64,000 nucleotides of DNA from Gnetum montanum (lineage: Eukaryota > Plantae > Gnetophyta): NCBI GenBank assembly GCA_015680685.1, contig MNCI01001630.1, positions 452,689 through 516,688 on the forward strand, written 5' to 3'. The notes under the pieces are model-generated. The model was not told where the DNA came from. It was given only the letters and a program-made list of their open reading frames with translations, and did no database searches. The position numbers and the translations under genes are program-made. Each line of letters opens with the position of its first letter. Position 1 is the stretch's first letter. Of the stretch, positions 10,141 through 56,793 are shown in pieces.

Positions 10141-10191
10141 AAAAGGAAGAAGAAGAAGAAGCAGAAGAGGAGCAAGCAAGAGTAGCCGTGA

Positions 10192-19400: not shown

Positions 19401-22400
19401 CCAACGGAACTATTGTATGTAGCAACATGAACCAACATGAACGAGGCACTCCGATTTTTGGCTAGAGTACTACCCGAACTCGTCTAAGTGTGCTAATAGT
19501 CTTTATTAAAAAAATAAAAAGAAAAGTTCGTACAAGGAAAAAGGAGCAATCTGTCGATAGACGGATAGTCCAAGAGGAGCCATGTGAGATTGTACCGAGA
19601 TACAGTATTGGTGTGCTTAACTAACAATTCAAATCAATCCATTATACAAGTTTGTAGTAATTCGTGAATGTACATATGAAAAGAAAATTGTGATACACAA
19701 TTTTGTTATTATGAAACCTGTGAATTGATTGGGATTAGTACTACATATTAGTTAAAGTCCTTGGTAAATTTCTACAATTTTCTGTTTTCTTTTTAAAAAT
19801 AATATTTTATATATACATTTGTATGATAGAAAAGTTCCTGATATTTTCTTTGCAACTATTGATTGTAACTATTAGGTCTATTTACTGTTTTAGAATGACT
19901 AATAATGAAACTCAAGATCACTGAAAATCCGAGTAATGTTTTTACTATTTTAAAACTTAAAAGGTAGCTGATACAATGTTGCATTTTATTATCATTGCTA
20001 AATACTTCTTGATAAATTCAGGTTTTAGCAGAGTGAGTGCGAGCGGAGTGAATGGGTATAGTGTGAGTGAAGGGAATGGGCATAGTGCGCACGGCAAGGG
20101 CGTGCGGCCTAGTCCGTAGGCGGCTGGCCATGAGGGGCACGCTATGGGGGAATATGTTGAGGGGGGCTCTGGGGCGACGAATGGGGACATTGAAGAATGC
20201 TCTCGTTCGGATGGCGTCATGCACCTTCGGGTCAATGGGCTGTCGATGGAGGAGGTGAGGACGATGGAGCGTAGTCTAATAGGATGCTTTGTATCTTCTA
20301 GCACCCACCCCCGAATGGACCTTATCCGACGGTGGACAAAGGAGGTGTGGGGAGAAGGGGCAGTGGACATGAGAAGCCTATCGAAGGACTTGCTCCTGTT
20401 TATTTTTTAGATGATGGAAGATCGTGATATGGTGCTCCAAGGTGGGCCGTGGTTCTATGGCGCTAGAGGGCTTGCTTTGACCCCTTGGTGGTTAGGGGCA
20501 CATTGAGAGCCGGACCTGTTTGCTTGTGCCCTAGTGTGGGTCTGTGTTTTTGGGATTCTGTGGGAGATGTGGAGCCTAGACTTCCTCAGGTAGATTGCTG
20601 GGTTTTTTAGTGAATTTATTACCTTCGATAAGGTGACACAGACAATGGAACGAATGGGTTTTGCTCATTTTTTGTGTGTGGCGGACCTTATCCTTGAAGG
20701 ACTTAATCAAGGAGGTTGTCCTCGAGCTCCCTGGTGGTGAGGAACAACTACGAGCTAAGTTTGAAAATTTGGAGATTGAGCCACCAGTGGAGAAAGCACT
20801 GCCCCCTTGAAAGGGATGGGGGGGTTTGCTCCCTTTGCGGGAAGAATGGGCATCGTGAGCCTGACTGTCAAGCTCGGGGTGGGGGAGCGAAGCTGGTGTG
20901 GGCTAAGGCGCATGAGCCGTGAGGTGGTGGGGATTTGATGGTGATTGGGTGTAAGGGATGGTTGTTCATGCCACCCCTGCCCCCTCCCCCATAGTGGTGG
21001 GCCTCTCCACTGTGGCGGGAGTAGGCCCTATGCTCTTCTCTAGTCTCTTTGCCATCAGTTGAGCCGATGGTACCTAGAATCGTGCTTCCCCCTCTTGGCG
21101 ATTAGGTTAATGTGGTCTGGGGGAGCACAAGATCTCAAAAGCCCGAGGAGGACTACCCTCAATTAGAGGATTTTGGATGCACCCTGATGTCACTAGTAGG
21201 GGGTCACCTTAGCCACCCTCTGAAAACTTGGTGCGGGAGAAGCAAACAAAAAGGAATATTGACTTGGGACTACAATAGACCCTGCGGGAGGTCTACCAGC
21301 GCCACTTGATTGGGCATGCATGAAGCTACTTTCATGGAATTGTAGGGGACAGGGTACACCCTATAAAAGAAATACCCTACAATAGATTGTTCACACTAAA
21401 GATTGTGACATTGTATGCCTTTAGGAAACCAAATTGCAGGTGGCAGAGGCTTGCCACCTTCATTGGGATGGCTGGAAGGTGCACCTGCGGCCCTGCGTGG
21501 GATGGGCAGGAGGCTTGGCTATCTTGGAGTGCTTTGAAATGCTCTTAGTTGACTCGTCGTAGTGGGCCCTGATTCTCCACATTCCCTCCTTGGGCCTGTG
21601 GTTGACCAACTTCTATGGGGCCCAAGCTTGGGAGCATAGGCCTTTGGAGTTGGAGCGTGTGGTGGCATTGGTGCAGGATCGTCGAGCATGGCTAGTTGTG
21701 GGGGATTTCAACCAGCGGCTTCACTCATGGGAAAAGTCTGCTGTTGGCTGCTCCCCTCCCCTTGGAGCCCAGGAGTTTCAAGACTTCTTGACGTCTTACT
21801 TGCTAGTTGACTTGGCAATTGAGAATTGTCAATTCACTTGGAGCAATAGGTAGAAGGGGGTTGACTGTGTACTCTCTAAAATTGATCAAGTTTGCATTAG
21901 CTCGAACCTCCTTTTGAGATTGGATGCGTGGGTCACAAGACAAGAGAGGGTCACCTCGAATCACCGATCGCTCATTTGCTGCCTTGGGCCTTCTAGGAAA
22001 TGGGCCTCTCGGTCATTTCGGTTTGAAGTGGCTTGGTTGCTCAAGCCCTAGTTATGCCCCTTGGTTGAGGACATTTGGGCGGACTACCAGTCGGGCCAAG
22101 GGGATCCTAGGAACTTTCTTCGAGAGGGGCTCTTCCATTTGAAGTGGGCTATCAGATCCATACTTGTGGAGGAGAAGTTCTCGTTCTAGATGGGCTGTGC
22201 AACCCTTCAATCCAGATTGGCCGAAGTGCAATCTCAACAAGAAGCTAGGGAGGACTTGCAAGATGAGGAGTAGAACATTTTGATGTGATTGCAAGCGCTT
22301 GACTTAGAAGAAGAAATCTATTGGAAACAAATGATCGTGGGTTAGGTGGCTCAGGGAGGGAGATAGATAGACGAAATTCTTCTTTGCTGTGGCCAAATCC

Positions 22401-25400
22401 CATGGGTGGAGCCAACAACACATGTTGTAGACTGACATGGGAGATTGGGTTGATGATCCAAAGGATATTGCTAGAGAATTGGCAAGGTATTGGGGGGTGA
22501 TTTGGGCAAAATGGCCTACAATGCCCATGTCAGTACGGGTTCCACGAGTGTTGGGAGAAGACGAAAAAGCTCGGTTGTTGACCCCGTTTTCTTGGTAGGA
22601 GCTGAAAGTGACTATTGGGGCCATGCCAGGAGGGAAGGCACCTAGGCTGGATGGTTGGAGTCTCAAATTCTTCAAGGAATTTTTTGATATTGTGGGACCC
22701 AACATCCTAGATGTCTTAAATTTAATGCTAACCAAGAGGTAGGTCTGCTGTGAGATCAACTGCTCCCGAATTGTATGCATTCCTAAACGCACTGATGCCT
22801 CTTCTCCGGCCCATTTTTGACCCATTGGGGTTTGTAACGTGTTGGTCCATATTTTCTCTAAGATGCTTGTGCGGAGGTTGGTCCCTATCATGCCTAGACT
22901 TGTTGGTGACAACTAGATGAGGTTCATTCAGGGACAAACCTTGCAAGACCAGGTGCTCCTCATGTAGGAGCTCCTTCACTCCCTACGTCTCTCGAAATTC
23001 CCTGGGCTGTGCCTCAAGTTAGACATTGCCAAGGCATACGATACGGTTAGTTGGGAGGCGCTTGTCCTCATTATGAGGCAGAAAGGATTTGATCCAGAAT
23101 TCATCCAACTATGTATTCACCTGCAATCTTCAGCCACATTCTCCTTCGATGTTTTGGGGGGGGGGGGGGGGGGGGGGCGCTATGGGGACTCTCGTCCCTC
23201 GGAAGGGGATTACGGCAAGGGGACCCTCTTTTGCCTTTGCTCTTTATCATCGGCATGGACCTATTGAGATACTATTGCAAGGCTGTGGGAGTGGGAGGCC
23301 TGAGAATTGTTGGGGTGGAATGTTTGGATGAGCACTATGCAGATGACATGATGCTGATTAGTCGGGTTGGGGTCCCACAAGCGCAAGGCATTGACCTAGT
23401 GCTTACATGGATGGTTGATGAGCTTGGCTTGGTGATAAATTGTGAAAAGTTGTCAGCACACTTCCTCAACGTTGATGCTCAAGTGAAAATCCGGGTTATG
23501 TAAATTTTGGGGGTTCCTTCGAGAACGATTTGAGACTCCTACTTGGGCGTTTCGCTATTTAATTGGGGACGATGTGTGGCTTGGGGGGCGGATCTAGAAA
23601 AAATTGAGACTCGGGTAGGAAACTGGGCGAATTGTTTCCTTACTCATAAAGGGCGGCGGGTGCCAGCATTGGGGGTGCTGGTAGCAATAGCACACTTTGT
23701 GGTTGTTGTCGCTACCCCCTGCGTGCTGTGATCTAGGCTATTGATCAACATGTGCGTAATTTCGTGTGGTCAGGAGGTAGGGGGGGTGCAAATTGCACTT
23801 GGCCAGTTGGAATCAAATTGTGAGCCCTCGGGTTGTGGGGGGTTTGGGGATTTCTAAATTTGAGGACAAATTGAGGCTCGGTCAGCAATGCATGCTATTT
23901 CGATTCACCCGCCAGGAGGAGGAGACGGCCCAGTGGGTATAGATAATGAATGCCAAGTACGTTAGATGGCAGTCGGGGGTGCATGATTCGAGGCCATGGT
24001 GGACACTTTGCCCCCATGCACAACGAATGCAATTGCGGGGGTGGTTGGATTGCGAGCTGCGCTGGCTGTTATCTGGCATGTATTCGTCAGTACTTGGATG
24101 CAGATATGGTAGGGCCGTTTGCCCAAAAAAATTAAAGTCTTTTTATGGCTTCTCAAAAGTAATGCCTTGTTGGTACGGGCGAATTTAAGGAGGCGGGGCT
24201 TCGATGTCGATGCCACCTACTTGCTTTGCAGGAATGAACCTGAAATTGTCTCGCATTTCACCTTTTAGTGTCTCTACATGCGTGCCATGTGGCATGCAAT
24301 GGGTTGGCCTCCCCCTTTGATGCTCTTGGGAAATTCGAGGCTACATTACTTTTATGGGAAGCCTAGAAAACTAAAAATCATAAAGTTTTTCAATAGCGTC
24401 GATTGCCCCCCCCTGTGCAGGTGGCTTCATGGGCTGCAGGAGTGTGGGAAGAAATCGTGGTTGCAATGGGGGTTATGTCGACCTACAAACCTAACTGTGA
24501 TGTGTTTCAGGCAAATACCAAGCTCTAGGGGATGGTAGAACATTGTGGCTGGGACAATGTCTTGCCGAGGCTAGTGGGTGACCCATCCCTCCCAGATGAT
24601 GCCTTTTTTACCAACTGGCGGGATAACCAGACAATTTTCCAGGGCATCGAAATTACCCTAATGGAGATAGTGATTGCCAGATATCTGGGGCCCAAGAAGA
24701 GGGTGAAATCATTTTGACCACTACCCAAGGGTTATAGGACGTTGACATGTTCTTTATTGGGCTAGTGCCACACACGTAGAGTTGGTAGGTGCCCAAGTTT
24801 GCTTTCCACTTGTTTGGGTGCAGGCTGCTGAGTTGGTTGACCAGTTTTTCATCCAATTTGGCAATGGGTCCAAACTCCAAGGCACACTTTGTGTTCCTAA
24901 AATGTTTGAAATTGGGAGTTAGGGTTAACTTGCCTCACTTTTTCCTGTCTGTCTTGCAACAATAGAAGAGGGGGTGCCATTTTGGGCTTATTTTGGCGCT
25001 TTGGTGCGGCCGCGGTCAGGCCTAGGACTGTTTGGGCTCTCAGGGTTGTCCTGGTCACAGGAGGGTCTGTTTGGTCCCTTTGGGTCCTCCTGGTTGGGGG
25101 CCATTCCTGCAGTGGTTTATTCCCATAAGCGCTCTAGCCTTTAGGAGTTGGGTGTCTCGACCCCTATGGTGGTGGTGGATGCTTTTCCATAGACGGAGTC
25201 TGGACGTGATGTGTTACAGGTAGAGGAGCTAAACCATGTGGGAGAGGAGGTGGTGGCTGTTGCTCATGCTAAGGAATAGCGAGAATGGCCAGATGGGAGG
25301 AAACCCTTGCTCAAGTGTAGGCTGACTTGGAAGCCTGCTTCCAGGAGTGAGAGCAGGAGTTGCCTCGGCAGCAAACCTTGATGGCGGAGGCTGCCCAAGC

Positions 25401-28400
25401 CCGGTTGGCTAATGAGCTCCATGCCCAGATTCATGAGGAGTTGCTGCAGGAGGAGGCTACTTGTAGAGAGTGTGAGAGGGCGGAGCATGTGCAAAAAGAG
25501 TGAGAACAGGAAGAATAAAGACAAAGATAGAGGCAGCTGGACCAAGCACATGAGCAGAGTGCACGACAATGGCTTTGGGAGGGGAGATGCTCGTACGTTG
25601 TGCTAGGCATAAACTGTGACTGCTCCTGGGGGGTGCTCTGACGACACATCCACCGTATGTCCGCGTGTTTCCATCTGGACGGGGGTACACTAGTTGAGGA
25701 GCAGAGTCATTGGGAGGTTGCCATGCAAGAAATTTAGAAGGCAGCTTGTTTCATGGATTTTGAATGACACTGTAATACTTTGGATATCCTCCATGTTCTC
25801 GAGCATTTGCACTGCCTGTGTCATAGGTTGTTGGCATAGCCGTAGTCTCCCTCCTTTGAGTTGGGATCCTGTTCTTGCTGTTTCCAGTTGGCTGATTTGG
25901 CCTTGTTTTGTGTTGTGGGTCCATAATGTCTGAATTTGGGGTTGGGAGGGAGGGGGGGAATGCCCTGCACCGCCCCCACCCTATTTTATTGATTCATGGC
26001 GGTTCCCCCCCCCCCCCCCCCCCCCACCGAGTCGTGGGTAAACCCGTGTGGGCCACCTCTGGTGGCCTGATTTTGTAATTTTAGCTTTTTTGTACTGTTG
26101 CCTTGATATCAATATAGTCAGTTTATAATATGAATGCCATGAGTTTTCTTTCACCCAACTTAACCAACATTTCCAATCAAATATAATCAAATTGAAAGAG
26201 CAATGGTTAAGATGGAAGTTAAGATATAACAAGTAGTATTATAATAAAAATATACCTTTATATTTTTAGCATTCATCAGCTGTTTATATATTTTGAAGTA
26301 TTTGCTTTTTTTTTTTGGTTAATTTGCAATCATACGTATTTTGATTACAAAGAATCAAGGCTTATGAAGGTGTTTAATTGTTGATGCTTTTTATAGGTAA
26401 GGACAATTTTTTTGTTTGGATTTCCAAAGGATGTCAAAGAGCGAGAACTTCAAAATTTGTTACGATGGTGGCCTGGCTATGAAGCATCTCAAATCAATGT
26501 CAAAGGTGATCAAGCTATGGGATTTGCACTTTTTTCTACAGCACAATTAGCAATGCAAGCAAGGGATGCCCTTCAAGTGAGTTTAGCGTTATTTCTTAAC
26601 AGTTTTATATACGTTATTATTTACATTTTCTAATTAAATCTTGATGTTTTGAACTCACAGTTTCGAAATTTTGTTGATGTGTTGCAGAATCTTGTGTTCG
26701 ATGCTGAAACTAATTCTGTTTTACGTGCAGAAATGGCAAAGAAAAATCTCTATGTCAAAAGAGGTAAGCGTTCTTAACTTTTCCTGAATCATTTCTAATG
26801 TTTTTCAAATTGAATATTATTTTTTCTTTTTGGGAAAAGCATTTGTATGTGAAGGATATATTTAGATATTTTCAGTTTTAACGTTTTGGTTTTTTCCATT
26901 CAAAACATGGTCAGAGATGTAAAGCATGATTATCACCATAATTTAAAGATTTTTTAAATGATGCAACACCCTACGAAGTCAATTAGCAAGAGACATGTAG
27001 TGGTGCATGAAGAGATGATCTAGGCCTTCTAATACCAACTAGACGTGACACTTGCAAACCAGAGAAATATGGAGGAGTAAATTTCTATGATATATTATCG
27101 AAGGATTCTGTCTTGTAAACATACTTTGTCATAATTAACACATCTTAAAAGGGCATGACCCCATTGTTTGATAATGCTGTTGTGATTTGGGGGTATGAAT
27201 ATACAATGCTGTGCAGCAAAAATCCGTTTTACTGAAAGCCAGTTGTGACTTGCTGAGCACATGGTGTAATGTAATGTTGAAAGCCAAAAAAATTAATTCC
27301 ATTAACAGTAACATTGAAATATTGCCAAGTTTCAACCACCATTTAACATTCAGAACATTTCGAAGTCTTCAATCGATTTTGACGTGACTCTAACAAGTTT
27401 CATTATTGGAAATTTTATAACAGCAATGAGATCTCGAAAATTGTAGATCCAACAAAATCTAACATTTTCTTTACTTTTCGTTTCTTTTAATCATCCTACT
27501 TCCTAACTCCTTCACCTGATTGCATTCTAGTTTCCTGGAATAATCTTTAAGAGTGTGCGACTCAAAAGTCCTAGTAACGCATTAGTCAAGTTGCCAACTT
27601 TGTAGGGATTACTATCACGTGATGTGAGGTTATCGTACAAGCACATACATGGCAATAACAATAATTACATTTGCCATAAAAGAAGTATTCACTACAAGCA
27701 TGCAATGTTGAAAACAAATTGATGCCGTATGTAAAACATATTACTTACAATATAATTGGGCAACTAGAGAATTTACTGGTAAAACATAATTCCACCTGAA
27801 AACAATATCTTGGTGCATCCAGCAAGGACATGCCAGTATGTACATATCAACAATCATGTCATCTAATAAATGCTTCTCTAACAATTGATCTCATTCTATG
27901 ATTTAACATTCTTCTATGGCTCTAACCATACCCTAAATTCTACTAGTTGCTATGTGGAGCTCAAACTTCAAATCTTTCTTGGTGGCCATTCATTATCATC
28001 AAACCCCATGCATGGATCTTCTGAGATGGTTCTTTCTTTTTCACATATAACCTTGTGTATGCATCTTCACAGAAGGCCTTCCATCCAGCTCCACACTGTA
28101 CCTTGTGCATGGACTTCCCAGATGATCCTCCTCTATTCACTTTGTTTGCAATCCTGCTGTGGCTATATAGTGATCCAACACATAGATTAAAAATGTGGAT
28201 CAGATCATGGGTTGCCTTGTCAGGCAAAAGATTTTGGATTGCGGATCACTTGGAATTGCAATCAGAATTGTGTGGAATCGGATAAGTTAAAAATAATTTA
28301 AAACAAAGATTTTAAAATATTTTTGCAATAAACAAATATTTTTGTTAACAAAAACATTAAAAAAACAATATTTCATTCAGACAAGTGAGGGAGTTAAGGC

Positions 28401-31400
28401 TTCTTGTTTTCATGATACTTGTTTCTGCTATTGGGTAACCTCATTTGGAACATGGCATTCATTAATGGGCACTTGCATGGGCAGGGTATACATAGATTGC
28501 ATCCATAATTGTGGCATGCTAGTAGTAGTGATTCTGAATACTTCCATCAGGTTTCCAACTCAAGGCATTGACATTGGTGGCAGTCATAGTCATTCTAATA
28601 TTGCACTGCTTATGAATGCCCAAACTGCCAAGAAAAAATACAGACTATTACCAGTACCAAGTTTCAATGATCTTCATGATCAGACTACCACTACTGTAGT
28701 TGAAAATGGTGTTAAAACCACTGATGCATCACTTGAAGCACTACTGCCAACATGTTGCAATAAGTCCCTTGTCCCACCATAGTTGTTGCAAGAACCTCTA
28801 TAATGTTACATTCATGTTTCACTCAATTTGGTTGGTTTATCCAATGAATCCAACTGCAGGAGGACACAGATGTAGATAGGCCATGACAATTGAGTACGAA
28901 ACTGTGGAGTCATCCAAATCTGTTTCCAAACTTATGATTTTAAAATACATATTTTTCTATGGATCACCATGTACTCAAGATCGCGATTCTGATCTAATTC
29001 AATAAGTTTTTTTGTGGATCTGGATCTGGAATTGTTTGGATCATGGGTGCAAGCTGCATTCTTAATCTATGATCCAACATCTATGTTGCCTAGATCATTA
29101 TAATAATCCTAGACTTGTTTTAACAATATGGGGCTAGCTACATGGGTTCTCTTTTGCCATTTGCCTCTACCAAAAGCTAATGCTTGATCTATTTGTAATT
29201 TTTTGATATCTACTTTAAGTGTTTCTTTTTATGATATATTTGGTCTTCTTTTTTGCCTGTTTTCTAGAACTGTGATTTGGCAACCTGTAACATCCCATAG
29301 ACATGTTGGAGATAGTGTAAGATGTGTCATCATGTGGACCATCAAATTTTCTCTCAATTTTATGTTTCATGTCATGTTTAATTTGAAGTCATGTAATTTT
29401 TTTTAGTTTTCAAAAGTTAAGAGTTATTAGGAATTAGTTTTTAATTTCCAAAGTTTGAAGTTTATGTTTTATTTCATGTAAGTGCATGTGCACACTTCAC
29501 TTTTGTAATGGATCAGTGATCCCACATGTAATCCTCATCCAAGTGAGGCATCCCCAAAAAGTATAAGAAGAAGTTCTCTCTTCCATTGTAAACTTGATGA
29601 GAGCACTTTGTTTTAAGTTGAAGGTGAATAGAAGAGAAGAAGTGTGCTGGTGGTTCCTTAATTTTCTTGTGGTGACTTTTCTTTTTTGTTCTCTCATTCT
29701 CACAAAAAGAATTCTCACAATGAGTTAAGATCCTCACAATTCTTCCATCAAATTTCTCACAATGTTTTTACAAGTTCGTACAATCTGATCGCAATCCTTT
29801 CATTTCCACAAGTTTATCTCTTAATTCTTAGTTTTATAGGCATTTAAATTACATAGGAAAGCTCATGTTTATGTTTGAAGAATCTGTGTTTTAGAAGCTC
29901 AATTAGAAGTGTTTGATGATTTGAATTGGCAACTCTAGCAAGGATTTTATTCATTCCTTGTTGTAGAAGCTTTGCATGTTGGAGGATCTATTATTTTGTC
30001 ATTTGAATCAGTGGTTTATGTTAAATTGTGGATGTTTTGGAGAGCTCTCTTGCGGCTTTTCATTATCTTCACCCTTTCTCACAAAATTTCAAAAGCATTT
30101 GAGGTTGTAAGCTAAATTGGCATTAAGGATTGATTGATTTAGTATTGTCTCATAGTTCTGAACATTTGGGTTCTAGATCTAAGCCCCCTTTTTTTTTATA
30201 GAAGAGTTTGGGCAATTATATTAAGATCAAGTCCAGTTTTGCCCACCTGTGAAAATGTCAGAACCCTTACCAATACAGCTAGCAGAAACCAAAAACTTCC
30301 CCTTCCTTGATTGAAACAGACAAAGGAAAATAAACGAAAGAGCAAAACAACCAGCAAGCAACTACCACAAAGGTGGGCTCCCTCACCCACCAACAAGGAG
30401 CCCACAACCCTATAGACATTTGGGTAGATTGATACACCTACAGGTCGCACACTCCTGAGTGTGAATCGCCTCAAGATCAGCCTAGTGCCTTTCCGTATCA
30501 ACAAAGGTTGCAACCTGTTGAAACTCCTTAAACTCCTCCTTTTTTGGCACACTCCACTGCTTTGCTAGTACCATTCAGATGAAGCTGAGCTGCAGTCCTC
30601 CTTATATGTCTTCACAGTTTATGCCACGAGGTATTGCAGTTAATGTCCATAATAATGTACAGGCACTTCCCTTCCTGTAACCAAAGCCATGTGTTGTGCT
30701 TATGAGCTCTATCCTGCTACCATTGTAATTGTTCAGCTTCCAACCGATCTCGCTCTTGTAACTCCTACTCTTGTTTCCATGGTGCTCTTTGCTGCTCCTC
30801 CTACTACATCTCAATGCGTATCTGTCTACCCAATTTTTCTCCTAGCATAGCCCTGGCCACCACCTCCTGTAGGTCCTGCCGTCTCTTTGACTCTTTTTCT
30901 AGCTTGGTGTGGTACATCTTTGCCTGCACCATAAGACGTTGGAATTCCTCCTTAGAGGGTTGAGGTGTTGTTTTTTTCTCAAAGTTGTCATTCTTACAAG
31001 TCATTTTGAGGTTTATGTCATGAAATCAGTTTGCATGGGATAGTAAATGCAATTGCACGTGTGTTTTTAGAGGTTTATGTTGGTCTTTGATGTATCACGA
31101 CACTATGGCCAAAGTTCGGAGAAGATTTGATGTTGTTTGCCCTTGAATTGAGCTTGTTTTGGGCATTTAATTTTTGAGTTTCAGGTCATATCGTTGGGCA
31201 TAGATTCTAGCGATACTAATTGATATCATTGTTCAGGATATTGATTTTCATAAATTTGGTGATAAGAATCGATATGTTTGTATTTTGAAAATGTTAAAGT
31301 GCCAAACATATCGTTGGATGCCACTCTAGTGATCAAAATTGATATAGTTGTTTTCTATCTTGCCTGATATTGATCTAGTAATGCCAATCAATATGTTTGT

Positions 31401-34400: not shown

Positions 34401-37400
34401 TTTATGGCCACAATAGGTGGTTTGTGGTTGAGGACTAAAACCGGTGGCTATATGATTGGGAGAGAGTAGGGAAGGGTATGATGTCGCTGCAGGGGAAGAT
34501 TTGTTTCACAAATTTCTCTCAGATTTCAATTTGGTGGACTTAGAGATTCAAGGTTGCAATTTACTTGGACCAATAGTAGAAGAGGGGAGGATTATGTCAT
34601 GTCCAGGATTGATAGGGTTTGGGCTAGCATAGTTATGTTGCCTAGGAGGTAAATGATAGTTTGGGCTAGCATAATTATGATGCCTAGGAGGCAAATTATA
34701 GTGACACCGTTGGAGAGATGGGCTTCTAATCATATGGTCTTGTTGTGGGATGTTTGGCGGTCCCTCCTTGAGGATTAGGGGGGTCGGAGGTGCCGCTTCA
34801 AGTTGGTGTGGTTACAGAAACAATGGCTGGCTTGGTTGGTCCAACAAACTTGGGCTTCTTAACTAGGGCCAAGGAATTGAAGGGACTTTCTCAAATGGGG
34901 CTTGCAGAAGGTGAAAGGTGGGATCATGTCCTAATTAAAAGAAGACAAGTACAATTTCAAGTATCTTAAGCATGATCAAGTCCTTAGACTTCAAAGAATC
35001 CAACAGTTGCAGGAGGCAAGGGAGGACCTCTAGTTTGAGGAGTATGAATCACCTAAAGAATTGTAGTAGCTTGATTGGGATGAGGAATTGTATTGGAAGA
35101 AGAGATACCTCATTTGGTGGTTGATGGAAGGAGACCAAAACACAAAATTCTTTTTTGTGACTACTTGCGCTAGCAAAAGGTCCAAGGCCATGACACTTGT
35201 AGATGAAGAAAACAGGTGCATCATAGACCTATGGCTCATCACCTAGTGATTGCAAGGATTCTAGAAAGAGATTTGGCAAAAATGATGAACTTTCGCCATC
35301 GTGGTCCCAATAAGATGGATCCTTTCCCACAAGGATAACCAAAAACGTCTCCAAAGCATTAGCAATTTTGAAGTATGGGAGGCCATTTCAACCATGAAAC
35401 TTGGAAAAGTGCTTGGTTCAAATGGATGGCCTGTTGAATTCTTTGCTGAATTTTTCAAGATTTTGTGACAGGATTTGGTCGATGCTTTCAATCTCATGCT
35501 TTGTTGGGGACAGGTTAGGAGGGAAATCAACTCTTCTAGAATTGTCTTTGTGCCAAAAGGGGAATCTCCAATGAGTCTTGCAGATTATTGGCCTATTGGG
35601 GTTTGTGACAGTCTCCTACAAATCTTTACCAAGATCCTAGTTTGCAAGATACAACCATTGATCTTGAGCCTAGTGAGTAGACATCAAGCAGGTTTTGTGA
35701 AGGGAAGGTGTATACATGATTATATCTTGTTTCTGCATGAGGCCCACCAGTTGATAAAAAAGCAAAATTTCCAAGTATGTCTATGAAATTGGACATAGCA
35801 AAAGCTTGTGACACTGTTAAGTGGGAAGCCCTAAGACAGGTCATGTTGCAAAATGGTTTCCATAGTAGATATGTAGACCTTTGTCTCTAGATCCAACACT
35901 CTAGAGTGTTCTCCTTTGACATTAACGGGTGACTTTGGGGGTTTGACTCCCCCTAGCAGGGATTGCACCAAGGGGATCCTCAATCTCTCTATCTTTTCAT
36001 CTTGGCCATGGATATGATGCACAAGTACTGTCAGATGGAAGGGGTTAGAGGCATGGAGGTAGAGGGTATTACATGCATTGCCAATCATTATGCAGATGAT
36101 ATTTTTTTGACCGCCAAGCGTGGTATGTAAAAAATGCCTTGCAATGGATGACTAATAAGATGGGGCCAAAGGTGAATTGGGCGAACTTTGCTACACATTT
36201 CACCCATATTGATGGCAACATGAGATGAAGAGTCATTGGGATGCTGGAAATTAGGCTAGGTCATTATGAGGATGCCTATTTAGGAATCCCCATCTTTAAT
36301 TGGGGATGGATTGGGACATGGGTTGCTTTTTTGAGCAGAATGCAGGTGAGGATAGGTCATTGGATGTTATGTTTTCTGTACAACAAGGGCAAAGTTATGC
36401 TTGCTACTCTTGTCTTGGTGGCTATGGCAAGGTATGTGGCCTCTATATTTTCCCTGTCACATCAGGTTGTTAACACGATTAACTAGATTATGATGGACTT
36501 TGTCTAGTCAAGAGGGAAGGGAGGTCAAAGGAGATACATGGTTTATTGGGAAAAATTACCCACCTGAATGGTGTTAGGGGCTTGGGGGTGCCGCACTTTG
36601 AAGATGTTCTCCTTTTGACACACATCAATCTAATGAAAAAGGATTGCAGAGGATGAGGACAACATTGAGCAGAAGGCTCCATGGGCATAGGTGGTGCAAT
36701 GGAAGTACATGTTTTGGGAATGTTCGAGTAATGATTCCATGTTCTAGAAGAACATTTGCAGGTGCTATCGAATGCTTTAGCAACTATCCATTATAATCAC
36801 TTAGACATCGGCTGTTGTGTTGCTGCAAAAGTAGGGTCTGACAAATGCCTAGTGCATAATCTAGAAGGGGCGACTTCTAGAGAAGATTAAAATTTTCATC
36901 TGGTTGCTACAAAACAAGGTCATACTAACCTGTGCCTTTCTTACTAATTGAGGCCTTGGTATCAATGATGCTTGCTTGCAATGCAACACTTTGGAGCCTA
37001 AAATGCATGACCACCTGTTCTTTAGCTGTGCCTTCTCTATGTAGGATTGCCAAGTTGCGCAAATTGATCCTACTCTGCAACTGCATGGAAATTGCTTTGT
37101 TATAGCGGTTGCCTAGTCCATTTGGAAGGCAAGGAACAAAGTTGTTTTCATGAGTGCACGAGTGTCACTATTGGGTATTGTGGGTGTTGTTGCTTGTTGA
37201 TTGTGGAAGGAGGTGTTGGCTACTATGAGAGTGATGCCAACCATGGAATCGGACCACACTCTGTTCTAGGAGAATTAGGAGCTTTCAAGTATAGTGGTTA
37301 GGGTTGGCTGGAAGGAGCTCATGTTGTCTATCCTTGGTGAGCAAGGCTTGTAGGACTTGAGTTTTTTTCTCTTAGTGTAAAAATGATGTCACAACTTTTA

Positions 37401-40400
37401 GGGGCATGTGCATCATGCTCACCGAAGATGCCATTGGTGGGTACCTCTCCCTGCTGTGGGAAGGGGAGGTTATCCTATCGTTAATTCCTAGTTTCTAGGA
37501 TGTGGCTTCCTTCTTTCTAGGGGAGGTTTCCCGCACCTTCAGTGGTCAGGTTTCGTGCATGTGACTCCCTCTCCTTTGGCAAGCCACGATGGAGCTCGTT
37601 GAGCCTTTTTTCATACAAACAAGGAGCTGGTTGAAACTTTAGGGCACTCACTTTGTGTTTATACTTTGCCTAAAGCTTGGCTGGCTGGTGAATTTGTTGC
37701 GATACTTCTTGGCGATGTTTTGATAGCATTGCCATCGGAGACATTTTGGACTTATCTTGGCATTATGGTATGTCGTGAGGATGCCTAACTTGGTGTTGAT
37801 GGTTGGTGTTTTACAATTAGTGGACTTCCCAAGGGTTTATGTCTGCCGTGGGATTTGCTAGGGTTGGAGTTTTGAGTGGCTTGGGGAACCATCATCGTCT
37901 GCTGTGCCTGATGGTGCCCAGGCAATCTCCTCGGCTTTGCTAGACGAATTGGTGGATGACTGGAAGAAATAGCTCCAACAACACCTGTGCAAGAGGGAGA
38001 GGGAGAGGGAAATCCAGGAGCAACTTGAGGGTTTGTTTAAGGCTAAGTTGAATAGATAGCTCCTAGAGGTTGAGGAACACATTAGACTCTGTCCTGGGAG
38101 TAGGAGGAGGCCCTTAGGGAATAGCTTTGGCAGGAGCAGGAATAATCAATGATGGAGCATGAAAGGAAGTGGTGGAAGGAGATGGAAGCCGAAGACGTAG
38201 TCCAACGTAGCCTTCTGGAAGAGTGCCTTTGATAAGAGATAAATGAACAACTGAGAAAGGAGGAGAAGGAATCAGAGGAGAGGGAGCAGGAGGAAGCATT
38301 CCAAAGGATAAAGTAACTATTGGATGAGCACAACATGCAAGAGCGCTAGGCAAAGGTGTAGGCTGTTGTCGGAAATCAACAGCAGAAGATATGCAGCAAA
38401 AACCAGAAACCGAAATGCCCAAAATCAAGCCCCAATGACATGAAATTATTTACAAATCTGATGCTATCACTGAATGTCGCTTGGAGTGACTAAAATCGAG
38501 ATCTTGCTTTTGCTTATCGAGGTTAATTGCTTGGGAAAGATGGCCATGAGAAACTCTCTAGAATTTTTCTGTAAACTTATTGCACTTTATCGTGGTAGCG
38601 ATATTTACACTATTGAACTTTGTCGTGGCAGCAATGATGACGCTATCAAACTTTGTTGTGGCAGTGATGATGACACTATCAAACTTTGTTGCGGCAGCAA
38701 TAACAATCGATATGCACTTTATTGTTGGATTGATAAAAACATCGATATACTGAAAATTATATTGATCTCTTATCACTGGATTGATGGAAATTTAATATGA
38801 CCTGCAACCTGGAAGATAAGAAACCAAAACAAGCTTGATTCAGGGGAAAATTACGACAAATCTTTTTCAAACTTCAGCCATAGTGCCGTGATACATCAAA
38901 GACCAATATACATCTCAAAAAACAGCCATGTAATGAGATTTGATATGACATGCAAATGAGTTTATGAAATGGGCTTCAAAATAACTTGTGAGTATGACAT
39001 TCTTGAGAGAAAATAACAGCTCAACCCTCTAAGGGCTTAGATCTAGAATCCAAATGTTCAGAACTATTAGACAATACTAAATCTATCATTCTTTAATGCC
39101 AAATTTTGCTTACAGCATCAAATGCTTATGAAATTTTGTGAGAAGGGGTGAAGATAATGAAAAACCCCAAAAGAGCTTTCCAAAACCTTTACAAATTAAC
39201 ATAAAACACTGATTCTAATGTCAAAATAATAGATCCTCCTTGCTAGAGTTGCCAATTCAAATCATCAAACACTTCTACTTGAGCTTCCAAACATAGATTC
39301 TTTAAACATGAACATGAGATTTCATGTGTAATTCAAATGCTTCTAAAACTGAGAAATATAAACTGAAAATTGAGAGAGAAAATTGTGAAAATGAGATCAG
39401 ATTGTGAGAAATTTTGAGAACATTGTAAGAAATTGGATGAGAGAATTGTGAGGATCTTAGTTCATTGCAAGAAATTCATGTTGTGAGAATGAGAGAACAA
39501 AAGGAAAATACACACAAAAACCTTAAAGAGCCACCAACATGCTTCTTCTCTTCTGTTCACCTTGAGCTTGAACTTGAAACAAAGTGTTCTCATCGAGTTT
39601 GAAATGAAGGAGAGGATTCCTTCTTATACTTTTTTTGGGGATGTCTCACTTTGATGAGGATTACTTGTGGGATCAATGATGCATTACAAAAGTGATGTGT
39701 GCACATGCTCTCACATGAAATAAAACATAAACTTCAAACTTTGGAAATTAAAAACTAACTCCTTATGACTCTTTATGATTTCTAACTTTTGAAAACCAGA
39801 AAAATATTACAGGACTCCAAATTAAACAGGACATTCAACATAAAATTGAAAGCAAATTCGATGGTCCACGAGGACACATCTCACACTATCTTCAACAACT
39901 GCTAACGCCAAGAGGTGGCTTCATGAAGGGAACTGCCCCTATGTGGTTTTGGGGATCCACAGAGAAACCCGTGAAAGGACCTTCATAGGTATATTAGGCA
40001 GGAGCTCTGCACGATGCATCCCAACAAGATGTGTCATCTTCCCTGCCATGTGCAAGAGCAATAGGAGGACAGGTTCAAGATGTTTCAGCAGGTTGCAGGG
40101 TTTCTGCCTTTGGAATAGGATAGAGAAATTTTAGATAAAGTGCATAGGCAGGAATGGCCTTCCTGTCACTATAGAACCCTGGCTTTCCCAATATGAGCTA
40201 CCATTTTGTTGCTTCTATGATGGCTATTTGGTTAGATTTCAGGGGTCTGCTAACTCTGGGTTTTGATAGTAATACAAACAGGCACGGGTTACCTTTACTG
40301 GTAATTTTATTGTTCAAGTTGAGGCGGTGTCACCCCCTACACTTCAAAATGTTTTAACTTTGAAGTGACACAGTGCTGGTTGGAACGGGGGTCCCACTCC

Positions 40401-43400: not shown

Positions 43401-46400
43401 TTGCTTTGCTCTTAGGTCAGAGTGCTTTCCTCCTTTCTCCACTCCATTTCAATTATAATAAATTTTATCAAAGCAGTAGGCACATTATTTTTTATGTGCA
43501 TTTTTAAATTGCTACTAAGATGCCTTCTTTATCTTCTTTGATAAATGTAAATTGCAAATTTAGCTGTTCTGTCTTGCGACAATAAGTTGCTTGTTTTTTT
43601 TAAAGCAAAATGTTAGACAACTTGGCTATTAAAAAGCACATGCTACTGATCTTGATTTATAAATGTAGAAATTGATAGAGCTACACAATTTTAGCCAACC
43701 TCATCCTATTGGGACAAGGCTAGGATGATGATGATAGAGCCAGCCAATTTCCTTTGAAGCCTGAGAAAAAGCATCATTTTATTAAGTAAAACTTCACCTG
43801 TTGTCAGGCGTTTTTTTCAGTTGGGCAGTTCTTACAATTTCCAAGTGTTACTATTGAAATTACCTCCTTCATAGCAATCCTTTATGTAGCTGATCAGACC
43901 TAGCAAGAGTTTCTCTTGCTACAGTCTCATTTATTCTCATTTATCCTTCATGAGAATTGATCATTAAGGCCCGAAGACTAGTCTCATTTGGTTGCTTTTA
44001 GATATTGCATTGAATAAGCAAAGAGAAAACAAGGTCAGTGGAGGTGCATTTCCTCCAATGGGACGGGTGGAATACCCAAATGCACCCCTGCTTAGGCAGA
44101 GCCGGTGGCATTGCCATCCTTGCCCGATACACCATGAATCTCGTGGATGTTTCCCATTGGGCCCTCACTGTCCAGCTCCCCTCGCAGGGGGTTTGGCTGA
44201 CCAATTTCTACGGTGCACAGAATTGGGAGCAGCGGCTCCAGGAGTTGACACGGGTGGCGCGGCTGGTTTCGGACCATAGGTCATGGATTTTGGCCGGGGA
44301 CTTCAACCAGCGCCTACATCCGTGGGAGAAATCTGGGGGAGCTGCCCCCCGCCACCTGGAGCGACTGAATTCCAGAGTTTTCTTACGACCTTTTCTTTGG
44401 TTGACCTGCCCATTGAGAACTGTCGGTTCACCTGGAGTAACTGAAGGAAAGGCCCGGATCGGGTCCTCACCCGTATTGATCGGGTTTGCGTCAGCACGGA
44501 CATGTTACTCCGTTCCTCAGTGCGGGTGACGGGACATGAAAGGGTGGCTTCTGATCACCGCTCGTTGACCATCACCATCGGACCAGACAAGCCCGGCATC
44601 CTGCGCCCCTTTCGTTTCGAAGCTTCCTGGTTAGCCAAACCATGGTTGAAGCCACTGGTGGAGGAGATCTGGACGGACTATCAGCCCGGCCAAGAGGACC
44701 CTCGAAACTTCCTACGGGAAGCTTTACTCCTGCTGAAATGGGCTATCAAGAGCCTGCCGGTGGCTGACAAGTTTTCCTTTCGAACGGGTTTGGATGAGCT
44801 TCGGGACAAGCTCGGCCGGATACAAGCCCGACAGGAGGCGGGGGAGGATCTCCATGCAGAGGAGCAGCGTGCGCTGCGGTAGCTGCAGGCCCTGGATCAG
44901 GAGGAGGAGACCTACTGGCGGCAGCGCTCCCGGGTGCGCTGGATCAGGGACGGAGATCGGCAGACCAGATTCTTCTTTGCCATGGCCAAGTNNNNNNNNN
45001 NNNNNNNNNNNNNNNNNNNNNNNNNNNNNNNNNNNNNNNNNNNNNNNNNNNNNNNNNNNNNNNNNNNNNNNNNNNNNNNNNNNNNNNNNNNNNNNNNNNN
45101 NNNNNNNNNNNNNNNNNNNNNNNNNNNNNNNNNNNNNNNNNNNNNNNNNNNNNNNNNNNNNNNNNNNNNNNNNNNNNNNNNNNNNNNNNNNNNNNNNNNN
45201 NNNNNNNNNNNNNNNNNNNNNNNNNNNNNNNNNNNNNNNNNNNNNNNNNNNNNNNNNNNNNNNNNNNNNNNNNNNNNNNNNNNNNNNNNNNNNNNNNNNN
45301 NNNNNNNNNNNNNNNNNNNNNNNNNNNNNNNNNNNNNNNNNNNNNNNNNNNNNNNNNNNNNNNNNNNNNNNNNNNNNNNNNNNNNNNNNNNNNNNNNNNN
45401 NNNNNNNNNNNNNNNNNNNNNNNNNNNNNNNNNNNNNNNNNNNNNNNNNNNNNNNNNNNNNNNNNNNNNNNNNNNNNNNNNNNNNNNNNNNNNNNNNNNN
45501 NNNNNNNNNNNNNNNNNNNNNNNNNNNNNNNNNNNNNNNNNNNNNNNNNNNNNNNNNNNNNNNNNNNNNNNNNNNNNNNNNNNNNNNNNNNNNNNNNNNN
45601 NNNNNNNNNNNNNNNNNNNNNNNNNNNNNNNNNNNNNNNNNNNNNNNNNNNNNNNNNNNNNNNNNNNNNNNNNNNNNNNNNNNNNNNNNNNNNNNNNNNN
45701 NNNNNNNNNNNNNNNNNNNNNNNNNNNNNNNNNNNNNNNNNNNNNNNNNNNNNNNNNNNNNNNNNNNNNNNNNNNNNNNNNNNNNNNNNNNNNNNNNNNN
45801 NNNNNNNNNNNNNNNNNNNNNNNNNNNNNNNNNNNNNNNNNNNNNNNNNNNNNNNNNNNNNNNNNNNNNNNNNNNNNNNNNNNNNNNNNNNNNNNNNNNN
45901 NNNNNNNNNNNNNNNNNNNNNNNNNNNNNNNNNNNNNNNNNNNNNNNNGACATTCAACCAGGGACCCCCAACGACACATACTTGGGCATCCCCCTTTTCC
46001 GGTGGGGAAGGACCACGGCGTGGGGCCATCTGCTGGAAAAGATGGAGCGTAGGGCAAGCCACTGGGCTAACAGATTCCTGAGCCGCAAGGGGCGCCTGCT
46101 GGTGGCTGCAGGGATCCTCGTGGCCACCACGCGTTTCGTGGCGGCAGTAGCCGCCCCCTGGTACCGTCATTAATGCCATCAATACGTCACTTCGTCTGGG
46201 GGGGGCAGAGGGGGGAGCAAGCTGCACTTGGTCCGTTGGGAGCAAGTGGCGCGCCCACGTGGTGCGGGCGGCCTGGGCATCACGACGTTCGAGGACGAAT
46301 TGATGCTGGGGGGACAACGGCCCGTTCTCTGGCTCTCGCGGTCTCATCGGGACCCGGTCCCATGGATTAATATTATTCGAGTCCTTGGGGTGCTAACATC

Positions 46401-49400
46401 ACGTGGGGCCGTAGGGCCCCAAGGGAGCGGCGCCCCCCGTGCGGCAGGACCAGTCGACTTTCGCCCCCCCAGAAACCCCCAGCCCCCCTGCAACCTACGC
46501 CTGGAGCGAAGAGCAACGAAAGAGGGTGGTGGAGGAAGCCAGAGAGGCGGAAAGAAGGGAGTGGGAGGCAAAGTGGACGGAAGCCTTCGCCCAGGCCCGC
46601 AACGAGTTAGAGGCCCAGTTCTGGGCAAGGGAGTAAGAGCGGGCTAGGCAGCAGGACATCATGGTAGACGCTGCCAGGGCTCGGCTCATCGATGAAATCA
46701 GAGCCCAGGTGCGGGAGGAGCTCGCGCAGGAGGATGAGTCCCGGAGACAGAGACAGCAGGCGGAGCAGGAGGAGCGGGCCCGGCTTATGGAGGAGGAAGA
46801 GCAGAGACAGCGGCAGCTGGACCGTGCCCACGAGCATAACGCCAGACAGTGGTTACGTGGGGGACGGTGCCCATACCTTACGTTAGGTATCAGTTGCGAG
46901 AGTTCATGGGGCGAACTACGTAGATACATCTGCAGAACCTCGACGCACTGCCACCTCGACGCAGGCACCTCCCATGAGGACAGAAACAGAAGGTAGGCGG
47001 CCATGCAGGGTATTTTACAGGCGGCCAGTTTCATGGACACGGAGGAGCACCGAAATACTCTGGATCTTCTGCATGAGCTGATTCATCCCGACTGTGCTTG
47101 CAGGCAGCTTCCTACGAACCCCTAAGTGGGAGGGCGCCCCCCCCCTCCCCCACTATCTCCTTTTGGGGTTGGTGTTTCTCGATTTTGTCTCGCGGATCTC
47201 GGCCCCCGGCCGGCTAGCCTAGGTGAGATGCCGTGATCGAGGGATCCTTCCCCCTCGGTGTGGCCACCGTTGGTGACCCCCTGTTGTAATCTCTTGTAAC
47301 ATATTTTTGATCTTTTCCGTAATAGAATCCCGAACACTTTCTCAAAAAAAAAAAAAAAAAAAAAAAAAGGCCAAAAATTTATTTGCTTTATGGATTTTAC
47401 TAAAGCTTTTGACTTTGTTGTGAGAGAACAGGTATGGAGCAGACTTATCAAACTTAAAGTTGACATTTGTTTATTTAATGGTAACTAAAGTTTATTGAAA
47501 GATAATTTTTGACTTAAAAGATGATGAGACTACACAATCTTGTCAGTTTTACAGTAATATACGAATAAAGCAAGGCTGTCCTCTTTTACTAATTTTGTTT
47601 GACATTTTTATTGATGAACTAGAAGAGTGGATTAAAAGGGTACCGACAAATCATGCTATTAGAATGGATCAGTCATTGTTACAACTTTTAATCTTTGTAG
47701 ATGATGTAGCACTAATAGCAAATTTAGAAACAGTTAAATGCAATGCTACATCAACAACAAAAATTTTGTGAATGTACAAAAATGAAGGTGAATGTTGAAA
47801 AAATAAAAATGCTAATTTGTCGGAAATCGTGCTTGATGCTACTCCTGCAATGCCCAAATCTCTAGGGGATGCTTCTCCTATTGATTTGGGTGTTGGCATT
47901 TCCTGCTCTCGGGATCCAATTCATAGTGGTGGAGGTTTTAGAGGCCACTACGTAGGGTCATGGGAGGTTTCTAGTCTCACTAGAATCTAGGAGGGTCAGT
48001 AGGCCTCTAATACTGATGGCTCATAGCAAGAAGACACAAATGGAGATTGACTTGGGTTTTTAGTCAACCTTGAAAGAGGTCTATAAGAAACGGTCTACTA
48101 GTAGACCATGAGAATCTTGTCATAGAACCATAGGGGTCAAGTATGCCGTATAAAAGAAATACCTTGAAGGAAATTGTACAAAGAGAAGACTGTAACATGG
48201 TGTGTTTGTAGGAGACAAAGCTGCAACATACAGAATCCCATTTTCTATGATGGGCCAGATGGCAGGTGTAGCTTGTCACTTGTTGGGGTAGGGCATGGGG
48301 CTTGGCTGTCCTCTTATGGTTGTTGTTCGACTTAGTGGATTCATCTACTTGGAGTGTAACTTTTTTGATGATTCTTTTGGAATTTGGCTTACTAACTTCT
48401 ATAGGGCTTAGGATTGGGAGGTATGGCTAGAGGAGCTTAGGAGGATTTTGCTGTTGGTGCCTGATAGATGACAATTGATCTTGGTTGGGGGATTTCAACC
48501 AATGGTTGCATGCTTGGGAGAAGTCTGGAGGCAACAACATGGACCCCCTCGTAGTCAAGAATTCTTGTTCTTTCTCTAGTTCCATGACCTCGTGGACATG
48601 GCAATCAAGGACTACCTTTTCACATAGAGTAATAGGTGATGTGGGAAGGACCGTGTCATGTCCAAAATTGACAAAGTTTGGATAAGTATTTTGATGAACT
48701 TTGAGGTCTAGGTATTGGGGAAGGAGAGGCAGGCCTTTGATCACCATTCGGTGGTCTACTAGGTGGGGAGAATACAAAGGCAAACTTCCTTACCTTTTCA
48801 CTTTGAACATTCGTGGTTGTTGAAGCCCTAGCTGAGGCCCTTAGTGATGGAGATTTGGGTGCATTATCCTACGTAGGTTGATCTGCAGGACTTTCTTAAA
48901 GATGGGCTAATCAGGCTTAAGAGGGCCATCTATTCTAAGAAGACAGAGGAGAAGTTTTCCTTTTGGGCCAACAGAGCCACCTTGCAAAAACAATTAGCCA
49001 ATCTCCAAGCTCTACATGAAATGGGGGCATTGTTAGAGGAGGTTGAGCAAGAAGTTCTCAAAGAGCTACAAACGCTTTTTGCTGAAGAGGAGTTGTATTG
49101 GAGACAATGGGCATGGGTTAGGTGGCTGAAGAAGGGGGATAGAAATATGTGGTTCTTCTTTGCCACTGCTAAATCAAATAGATAGCCCAAAAGGATACAT
49201 CAGTTGGTGCAGGAACCACTCTTGTTCATGCATAGAAGATTGCACAAATGGTGCACACGTTGTGGGCTAAGATATGGAGTAAGCACAACACCCTCCTGCT
49301 ATCTATGTTGGTGCATATTGTGATTGGTTAGGCGGAGAACCACATGCTATTGGCGCCTTTTACGTGGGTCAAGTTGGAAGAAGCTATGGTGTCGATGAAA

Positions 49401-55400: not shown

Positions 55401-56793
55401 TGTTGGTCATATTTTATTTCTCCTTATTTATGGATACGTTAGTATACCTCATACAGTCATGGTTTTTTAAACAAAGTATACATTAGTCCATTAAAAAAAA
55501 TTGAAAGCTGACATTGATGTCCCCAGTTATTTGGCAGCCCCACATGCACCCTTTGATCCATATGGTGGTTACCCTGTTCCCCATGTTGCTCCAGTTCCGT
55601 TGGCCATTGCTCCTGCAGGCTATGCTCCAGTACAGGTATGGTGAATTCAAAGCTAAAAACATGAGTCACGGTTGAGTTGGTTATGGACTTATCATTAAAG
55701 TACCTTTAATTATGAGGTCATCACTTCAATCCTTATATGTGTATGCGTCTGGCAACTCAGCTAGTAAGCTTAATGAATATTAGAAAAAAGGTTTATATTG
55801 TTTTTGTTATTTAATAGTCCTTAATAATATAGCAATCCACCTATGCCGTCAATAACTTTTATCATTGGTCTCTGCTTGATTTTTTCTGTTGAATGTGTAG
55901 AATATGAAGGATAATCCTCCATGTAATACTCTTTTTATTGGTAATCTTGGAGAGAACACCAGCGAAGCAGAACTTAGAGGACTTTTCAGCAGGTAAAAAT
56001 GTTGCTAGAGTTTCTCCCTAATCATTGTTGTATTTTCTCTCGGTTGTTTAATCAGCATTTTTAAAATTAAATTACTTTAACAAAGCTGTTAAGTGAAAGC
56101 TATTCTCTAGTTTCCATCCCCTGAAAAATATTGTCAAACAGGCAATCTGGCTTCAGGCAGATGAAAGTGTTACGACAGGGAAGGAGCACAGTTTGTTTCA
56201 TAGAATTTGAGGTAAAAACATTTGTGTAAAAATTTTGTTGTTTATGTTCATTGGATTGATGGAACTGGTTTATATTGGTATGTCTTCTACTCTTTTGTTT
56301 AGCGGAAGGTGTTTTTAGACATAGTTGAGAACACTTATTGTTTGGTTTCTAGATTTGCAAACGCTTGTTCATTGATCATTCTCAAAACTGCGTGTCTATT
56401 TTGTGGATAAATTACATCAGTTTTTACTTGGATTTCTTCTCGAGGAGTCAGTTAATTAAGTTTACACATTTTACGCTTATCATCATCCTTTGTGCTTTTT
56501 TCAGTTATTTTTTCCTAATTAATGAACACTTTCATACAGGTTAAATTTTTGGTTCGACGGTGGATGACTGAACAATCTTACCTAATGCATCTTTATCTTC
56601 TCTTCTATATATATTCATTTCTAAGTTTAGGTGTCCTGTTATGTCTTTCCGTTTATCAGTTAAAATGGAAATTTACAAATTTTCAGGATGTTAACAGTGC
56701 AATGGCTGTTCATAATAACTTGCAAGGTGCGATTCTTGGTAGTTCTGATCGTGGTGGCATGAGAATACAATATCCTTCTTATTGTCATATGTT

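Follow-up and report, generated by a model that had tools for sequence, protein, structure and literature searches.

The window, a 64,000-nucleotide stretch of the Gnetum montanum genome (assembly GCA_015680685.1, contig MNCI01001630.1, positions 452,689 to 516,688 of the forward strand), contains six decayed copies, A to F, of a plant L1 retrotransposon, a long interspersed nuclear element (LINE). They are housed in introns of a host gene of the RNA recognition motif (RRM) type, with copies A to E in sense and copy F in antisense orientation. Copy A is near-complete, combining open reading frame 1 (ORF1), endonuclease (EN), reverse transcriptase (RT), the zinc domain zf-RVT and a J-like end in one element. 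Past zf-RVT, its ORF2 frame continues as a tail some 490 codons long (tryptophan codon 24364 to stop 25837), and we lean towards the reading that in this decayed, high-copy lineage the tail was translated as part of the ORF2 protein (ORF2p). The fused ORF2 would span about 1500-1600 amino acids, which active elements presumably made as one protein. The features of copy A are listed below; pN/pS is the ratio of nonsynonymous to synonymous differences per site, with its bootstrap confidence interval (CI) in brackets.

20144..20900, + strand: decayed ORF1 from Met 20144 (Pfam DUF4283, E 1e-20; zf-CCHC, E 0.013)
21320..24091, + strand: ORF2 with EN, RT and C-terminal region, carrying stops and frameshifts (Pfam RVT_1, E 2e-9)
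24092..24335, + strand: zf-RVT (Pfam, E 3.4e-14)
24352..24465, + strand: junction, comprising WKxRN and the helix behind it; ATG 24466 lies 102 nucleotides (nt) past W codon 24364
24466..24734, + strand: accN, N-terminal half of an accessory domain, from a shared Met, with a homologue in the Welwitschia protein P0024; pN/pS 0.59 (0.47-0.74)
24735..24737, + strand: in-frame TAG, also present in copies B (37496), D (50032) and E (51915)
24738..25010, + strand: accC, C-terminal half of the accessory domain (DVxxFFxG ... KLQGTHFVF ... HFGLILALW); pN/pS 0.36 (0.26-0.48)
25011..25287, + strand: variable linker without selection signal, its frame broken in copy A
25288..25563, + strand: E/Q/R-rich segment, a putative coiled coil read from composition alone; pN/pS 0.50 (0.40-0.63)
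25564..25836, + strand: putative J-like domain with HLD (25672) for HPD and a terminal CxC; pN/pS 0.44 (0.33-0.58)

Both reading frames of copy A place it in the plant L1 clade: its ORF1 pairs DUF4283 with a CCHC knuckle, and its ORF2 carries EN, RT (YADD near 23336) and zf-RVT in that order, the last also recovered by Pfam in copy B (at 36883, E 1.8e-6). EN was assigned by its 27-34% identity to PF03372-bearing L1 proteins; the protein search matched 23 of 1113 candidates, all 26-34% identical, and among six of these relatives that we inspected, five end in RNase H and one ends shortly past its WxxRN motif. At the 3′ end, copy C has a poly(A) tail and copy F an A-rich one, and no clear target-site duplication was found at copy A. 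The preliminary description of this locus had placed the tail in the slot where plant L1s often carry RNase H. An unrooted EN-RT tree of 28 rows, with no row dropped, gives copies A to D a group of their own, split from all 24 relatives with an ultrafast bootstrap (UFBoot) value of 100, but does not show that RNase H was replaced; because the tree is unrooted and the window copies stand apart in it, loss of RNase H cannot be told from its never having been present. The family is abundant, with 1497 and 1212 contigs from two DNA runs aligning at 80% identity or more to the 2.1-kb 3′ part of copy A. Over aligned bases, copies B, C, D and E are about 58-62% identical to copy A and copy F is 53% identical. 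These copies are laid out as follows.

36883..38400, + strand: 3′ part of copy B; zf-RVT, WKARN (37123) and accN in one frame to ~37362, and past it a second frame via TAG 37496 through accC, linker and coiled-coil start, truncated 5′ of the J-like domain
44025..47371, + strand: copy C, the least decayed; 5′-truncated, with EN, coiled coil plus J-like part (46502-47122) and a poly(A) tail; an internal deletion spans zf-RVT and the accessory domain, and an assembly gap (44992-45948, 957 N) covers RT
48070..51145, + strand: copy D; EN and RT start, a deletion near 49750, accN stop-free to TAG 50032, then accC, and a single frame over 50252-51142 through linker, coiled coil and J-like domain; having lost the RT end and zf-RVT, it is silent on the ORF2 junction itself
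51400..52420, + strand: copy E; zf-RVT end, WKxxN motif (51543), accN, TAG 51915, accC
30170..30960, - strand: copy F; 5′-truncated, with coiled coil, J-like part (HLN) and an A-rich tail

The claim that the extension is fused in frame to ORF2 and continuous in copies A, B and D is borne out by their translations. In copy A, LWEA*KTKNH (24352, the asterisk marking a stop), VAMG (24460), MSTYKP (24475) and MVEHCG (24532) share one frame. Copy B runs from zf-RVT at 36883 through WKARN at 37123 to VGWKEL, ending at ~37362, with no frameshift from the zinc domain into the extension, and copy D is one frame with 11 stops from 50189 through HLGLILALW (50276) and the coiled coil to HLD (50972) and on to 51142. 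W and Met lie 102 nt apart in A as well as in B. For every later pair of anchors, too, at least one copy keeps a distance divisible by three: D from Met to TAG (270) and, with 672 against 670 in copy A, from ILALW to HLD; A, B and E from TAG to ILALW. Frameshift positions differ between copies. Copy A has one just 5′ of WKxRN (236 nt from zf to W, against 240 in B) and others near 24686, 24780 and 24885 and in the linker; the shift near 24686 is private, the extra base being present in 7 contigs while 19 are clipped at 24687. Stops had been said to fall on codons expected to be W, Q or R; another copy has a W, Q or R codon in 15 of the 21 stop-bearing columns of the A/B/D/E alignment and in 5 none does, the remaining column being the TAG at A24735 that all four copies carry. 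The proposed ancestral fusion stands in so far as the tail is in frame and no stop is shared at the WKxRN junction; an uninterrupted ORF2 of about 1500 amino acids is not established, given that TAG in four of four copies.

Four of the six tail parts, namely accN, accC, the coiled coil and the J-like domain, are under purifying selection. Their pN/pS values of 0.36-0.59 are comparable to that of the RT end plus zf-RVT (0.52, CI 0.42-0.66), and shifted frames of the same four parts give 0.85-1.75. Selection on the extension, on which the preliminary description had made its reading depend, is thus supported for these parts, while the junction and linker give no clear signal.

RNase H is missing from this tail, as had been proposed. 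In copies A and B, Pfam searches of all three frames past WKxRN gave no RVT_3, and an RNase H profile built from five RVT_3-bearing relatives, which recovers its own five source proteins, had no match at E 10 in 858 six-frame tiles of the window. In Ta11-type plant L1s, RNase H lies at the ORF2 end behind a CCHC motif (PMC5348765). In one relative, P0010, the RNase H motif begins 64 amino acids behind WxxRN, and the Met of the window extension lies 34 codons behind it. Speaking of the same slot is fair because both the Ta11-type and the P0010 RNase H sit behind the zinc motif, although the arrangement that marks RNase H-bearing Ta11-type L1s, RVT_3 behind that motif, is absent from the window.

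The accessory domain has a single recognizable relative. Among 1.84 billion protein representatives, its profile matched only P0024, an ORF in a Welwitschia transcript (E 3.9e-8), and neither half gave a Pfam hmmscan match, PF20167 and PF03078 included, in the decayed copies or in P0024. In the Atlas, P0024 fell near 30 unnamed clusters (best 0.94); of the named ones, Transposase_32 (0.89; 49% of the members) and ATHILA ORF1 (0.88) came closest but stayed below 0.9, so that we treat this kinship as a lead only. The motif order of the domain presumably resembles that of the Transposase_32 family. An AlphaFold model (pLDDT 52) drew no credible structural match from PDB, BFVD or VIA-align, a protein search with an alignment of the extension matched none of 7729 candidates, and DNA scans with two degenerate patterns in metagenome contigs, one in viral contigs, and with P0024 in viral contigs were likewise without match. 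The nearest named Atlas clusters of the accN homologue recall the extra ORFs of long terminal repeat (LTR) retrotransposons (PF20167, PF03078 and the plant mobile domain (PMD); PMC11728184, PMC6317226, PMC8616336), which are separate ORFs, whereas the window tail is in frame with ORF2 and lacks a Pfam match. The domain would then likely derive from such an extra ORF of the Transposase_32/ATHILA kind.

At the C-terminal end, profile comparison suggests, if weakly, a J-like fold. The best PDB match of the profile was the Hsp40 J-domain 6rzy_A, the sole match at E 0.07 in one search and the best of three at E 0.049 in another, and the alignment is ungapped over 62-64 residues with HLD in register with HPD. 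Three copies (A, C, D) have the loop HLD and copy F has HLN, HPD occurring in none of the four; its leucine codons are CTG, CTC, TTG and CTG in A, C, D and F, respectively. Leucine is likely ancestral, the least decayed copy C having CTC, though CCG decay could explain the others. By eye, one loose read end in the RNA run X24 reads H-T-D. No J-like domain in the window is free of stops, a protein search with the J-like piece matched none of 20 candidates, and in VIA-align no J-domain appeared among the 50 matches listed for the J-like model, which were generic helical bundles only. Matches to Cas4 (E 0.64), a glycosyltransferase (E 1.9), JetC, SipA and Clc-like proteins were taken as chance. 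The likeness to J-domain and J-like proteins (SILENZIO, CJD1/ARC6, Tim16; PMC8616336, PMC3196505) lies in the H-x-D register; the window copies carry HLD or HLN, never HPD, are encoded by a retrotransposon and are predicted to bind partners.

Several observations weigh against a fused, selected and translated tail of this composition. The frames used for pN/pS were picked from the same alignments that were scored, and copy A enters every pair. At the junction, pN/pS is 0.77 (CI 0.53-1.17; 48 codon pairs) and not distinguishable from 1; the linker likewise lacks a selection signal (B against D, 49 codons, pS 0.19, pN 0.41, in a poor alignment), runs in frame through to HLD in copy D only, and is clipped or skipped by many contigs. 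The junction of copy E is off frame, at 106 nt from W to Met, and C accounts for no more than 16-50% of contig depth at the stop 24394 of copy A. The J-like domain has no Pfam DnaJ match, and its AlphaFold model reaches pLDDT 51; Foldseek places DnaJ chains first, second, fourth and fifth for it, at E 1.3-3.0. Finally, a TAG in four of four copies together with a matching end of P0024 is unusual.

That TAG gives the most serious competitor its footing. In this account, which we consider rather unlikely, the TAG at codon A24735 is genuine and inherited as a stop, so that most ORF2p ended after accN, the rest being made by UAG-G readthrough or through a TAG/G splice acceptor. All four copies covering the site (A, B, D and E) read TAG-GAY-GTN despite being only about 58-62% identical, and P0024, from another genus, starts at the shared Met and ends one residue short of the TAG codon, stop-free over 91 codons and with three W kept, although its end may be a stop or simply the end of the transcript. 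As a control, 310 EN-RT columns in which A, B and D are all in frame were compared: stops occurred once in 20, twice in 3 and three times in none. Against this, CAG-to-TAG decay is frequent nearby. The ten other Q/W columns of the four-copy block carry stops in 10 of 40 slots, and at Q columns about half of the slots are stops; 17 codons past the shared TAG, copy B has CAG where A, D and E have TAG. The observed-to-expected ratio of CAG and CTG is 0.56-0.89 in old copies and 1.4 in copy C, a depletion of the old copies and not of C that decay at methylated CHG sites predicts. At per-copy rates of 0.25-0.5 and 6-11 sites, the probability of one four-of-four stop column is 0.02-0.5; we estimate this chance at about 0.07-0.3, which P0024 lowers two- to threefold. 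The first alignment of the sequencing runs offered no help, as 40 of 605 variants were listed and the shared TAG and several private stops of A lay outside those 40.

Sequence around the TAG bears on how anything past it could have been made. Conservation resumes at the codon directly past it, and no ATG is shared there (the first in-frame ATG follows after 12, 63, 21 and 174 nt in the four copies), so that the downstream part, being under strong selection, would have been read through a sense codon or a leaky stop. Readthrough has a precedent in the gag-pol UAG of murine leukaemia virus (MuLV; PMC5009743). The 80 nt past the TAG show no shared low-energy fold (z 0.78, 0.63, 1.94 and -2.3) in these decayed copies, and no U-rich splice acceptor tract accompanies the site. 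It also seems to lie inside one domain, which would be odd for a main terminator; this placement, which draws on the order of Transposase_32 motifs and on the Atlas clusters, lowered the prior for a real stop. On balance, we find it somewhat the likelier explanation that the TAG was a Gln codon, CAG at a methylated CHG site, decayed in parallel. A narrower proposal, that a leaky UAG in a gymnosperm L1 tail doses the LTR-type accessory and J-like domains, with the readthrough form acting as an Hsp70/J-protein decoy, strikes us as quite unlikely. Depending on the answer, the site would exemplify recoding within an L1 ORF2, or else parallel decay, driven by methylation, that looks like a conserved stop.

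A different account makes the extension a separate ORF3 starting at ATG A24466, with ORF2 ending near KVFQ and the in-frame link being incidental; we judge it improbable. A, B and D all have ATG at that codon and P0024 begins with it, variants reaching 35% leave it untouched in four runs, the extra 3′ ORFs of LTR elements would supply the model, and both the unclear selection at the junction and the off-frame copy E would suit it. Copy A moreover has a TAG at 24394, where half or more of contig depth is not C (C is read by 53/106, 16/100, 70/147 and 66/178 of depth in the four runs). This low share is no sign of a fixed stop, because the coiled-coil stop 25528 behaves alike (36% and 31% of contig depth), and copy B reads AGT at the matching codon. 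The stops before the Met fall at different codons in A (24364, 24394), B (37198) and E (51628), and 24364 is a sense codon in most contigs of other copies (depth 200/307 and 231/314). By eye, none of 35 listed variants from four DNA runs makes a stop 5′ of ATG 24466, the listing covering the stretch minus about 45 nt at each end and hence not stop 24526. Copy E has ATT at the Met codon, and W-E helix residues are kept up to it. The earlier denial of a separate ORF3 therefore draws support from the common 102-nt spacing of A and B and the unshared stops, and is weakened by the common ATG and the unclear junction selection. That the extension is a passively carried, transduced fragment of the host or of an LTR element without an L1 role, as loss of the coiled coil and J-like part from E and of the accessory domain from C might suggest, is very improbable, being largely refuted by pN/pS of 0.36-0.59 at about 40% divergence; the more than 1200 contigs per DNA run and the Welwitschia homologue also speak against it.

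If the tail was part of ORF2p, it likely formed a protein-binding module composed of the accessory domain, a coiled-coil arm and a J-like domain without HPD. The ORF2p of L1 elements remains with the RNA that encodes it and accompanies it to the insertion site, so the tail would carry the J-like surface there. J-like domains without HPD neither bind Hsp70 nor rescue dnaJ cbpA mutants, and bind J or J-like partners instead (PMC3196505). Such a surface would thus leave Hsp70 unstimulated and instead associate with, or rival, the J-protein/Hsp70 complexes of the host. The J protein SILENZIO, MBD5/6 and HSP70 act in silencing of transposable elements (TEs), and a counter-silencing role has been proposed for PMD proteins encoded by TEs (PMC8616336); competition with these complexes would help new copies escape silencing. 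A viral superfamily 1 (SF1) helicase fused to the ORF2 C-terminus of insect R1/TRAS LINEs is likewise proposed to counter silencing (PMC4686597, PMC6338049). Taken together, HPD-less J binding, silencing by SILENZIO and HSP70, the PMD proteins and the insect fusion lead us to favour, tentatively and by analogy, a decoy or adaptor against J-protein-based silencing among the roles of a fused tail; targeting or chaperoning of the ribonucleoprotein (RNP) may be alternatives.

Foreign domains are known at the ORF2 C-terminus of LINEs, with RNase H in plants and the viral helicase in insects (PMC5348765, PMC4686597). Ta11-type plant L1s share with the window element the DUF4283/CCHC ORF1, the EN-RT-zf-RVT ORF2 and an extra C-terminal domain (PMC5348765, PMC5203782), but theirs is an RNase H tail of about 150 codons, whereas the window tail has about 490 codons and no RNase H. 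Insect R1/TRAS LINEs (PMC4686597, PMC6338049) similarly carry a foreign domain in frame at the ORF2 end, but belong to another clade and host and encode a helicase, whereas the window module is multi-part and non-enzymatic, with no helicase. We found no paper on a LINE encoding a J-like or LTR-type accessory domain in main texts and abstracts, the literature covered; 'DnaJ' was not found in the main text of PMC5203782, whose supplementary domain tables could bear on novelty. What appears to be unreported here is a real, selected tail on a plant L1 ORF2. If the proposed reading is true, a high-copy plant L1 carries a mimic of host J-protein/Hsp70 silencing parts, a candidate for transposon counter-silencing, and genes have moved from LTR to non-LTR elements.

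The RRM-type host gene (10190-55960, + strand) starts near 10190 and is at least 45 kb long; its first intron measures about 16 kb, and exons lie at ~26396-26580, at 26690-26762 and near 55913. Because the copies are intronic, RNA reads say nothing on L1 expression; run X24 yielded 420 aligned reads on both strands, 352 of them less than 90% alike. Words of the copy C 3′ part occur in 18 of 24 listed runs, from seven organisms, and no RNA run among those listed contains them.

In copy C (46380-46500, +), the RT C-terminal region is joined to the linker without zf-RVT and the accessory domain, and the copy could be a non-autonomous derivative. It was inserted in the RT of another, AT-rich LINE (43930-44030 and 47372-47800, +), whose frame ...RYCIE*AKRKQG resumes past the copy C poly(A) as QKFICFMDFTKAFD; a candidate imperfect target-site duplication of about 12 bases flanks it, by eye. 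The 3′ end of copy E (52195-52420, +) has a CCCAAACTCTTCT motif common to copy F and lacks the coiled coil and J-like part, so that the copy may have lost an internal segment or belong to a shorter subfamily. An AT-rich repeat, 74-80% identical between its two oppositely oriented occurrences (29304-31604, -; 38366-39897, +), is inserted at the 3′ end of copy F and again at that of copy B, and past it at copy B a J-like fragment appears again at 39910-40017. Translations also show short tandem duplications at 38590-38720 and 40690-40790 (+).

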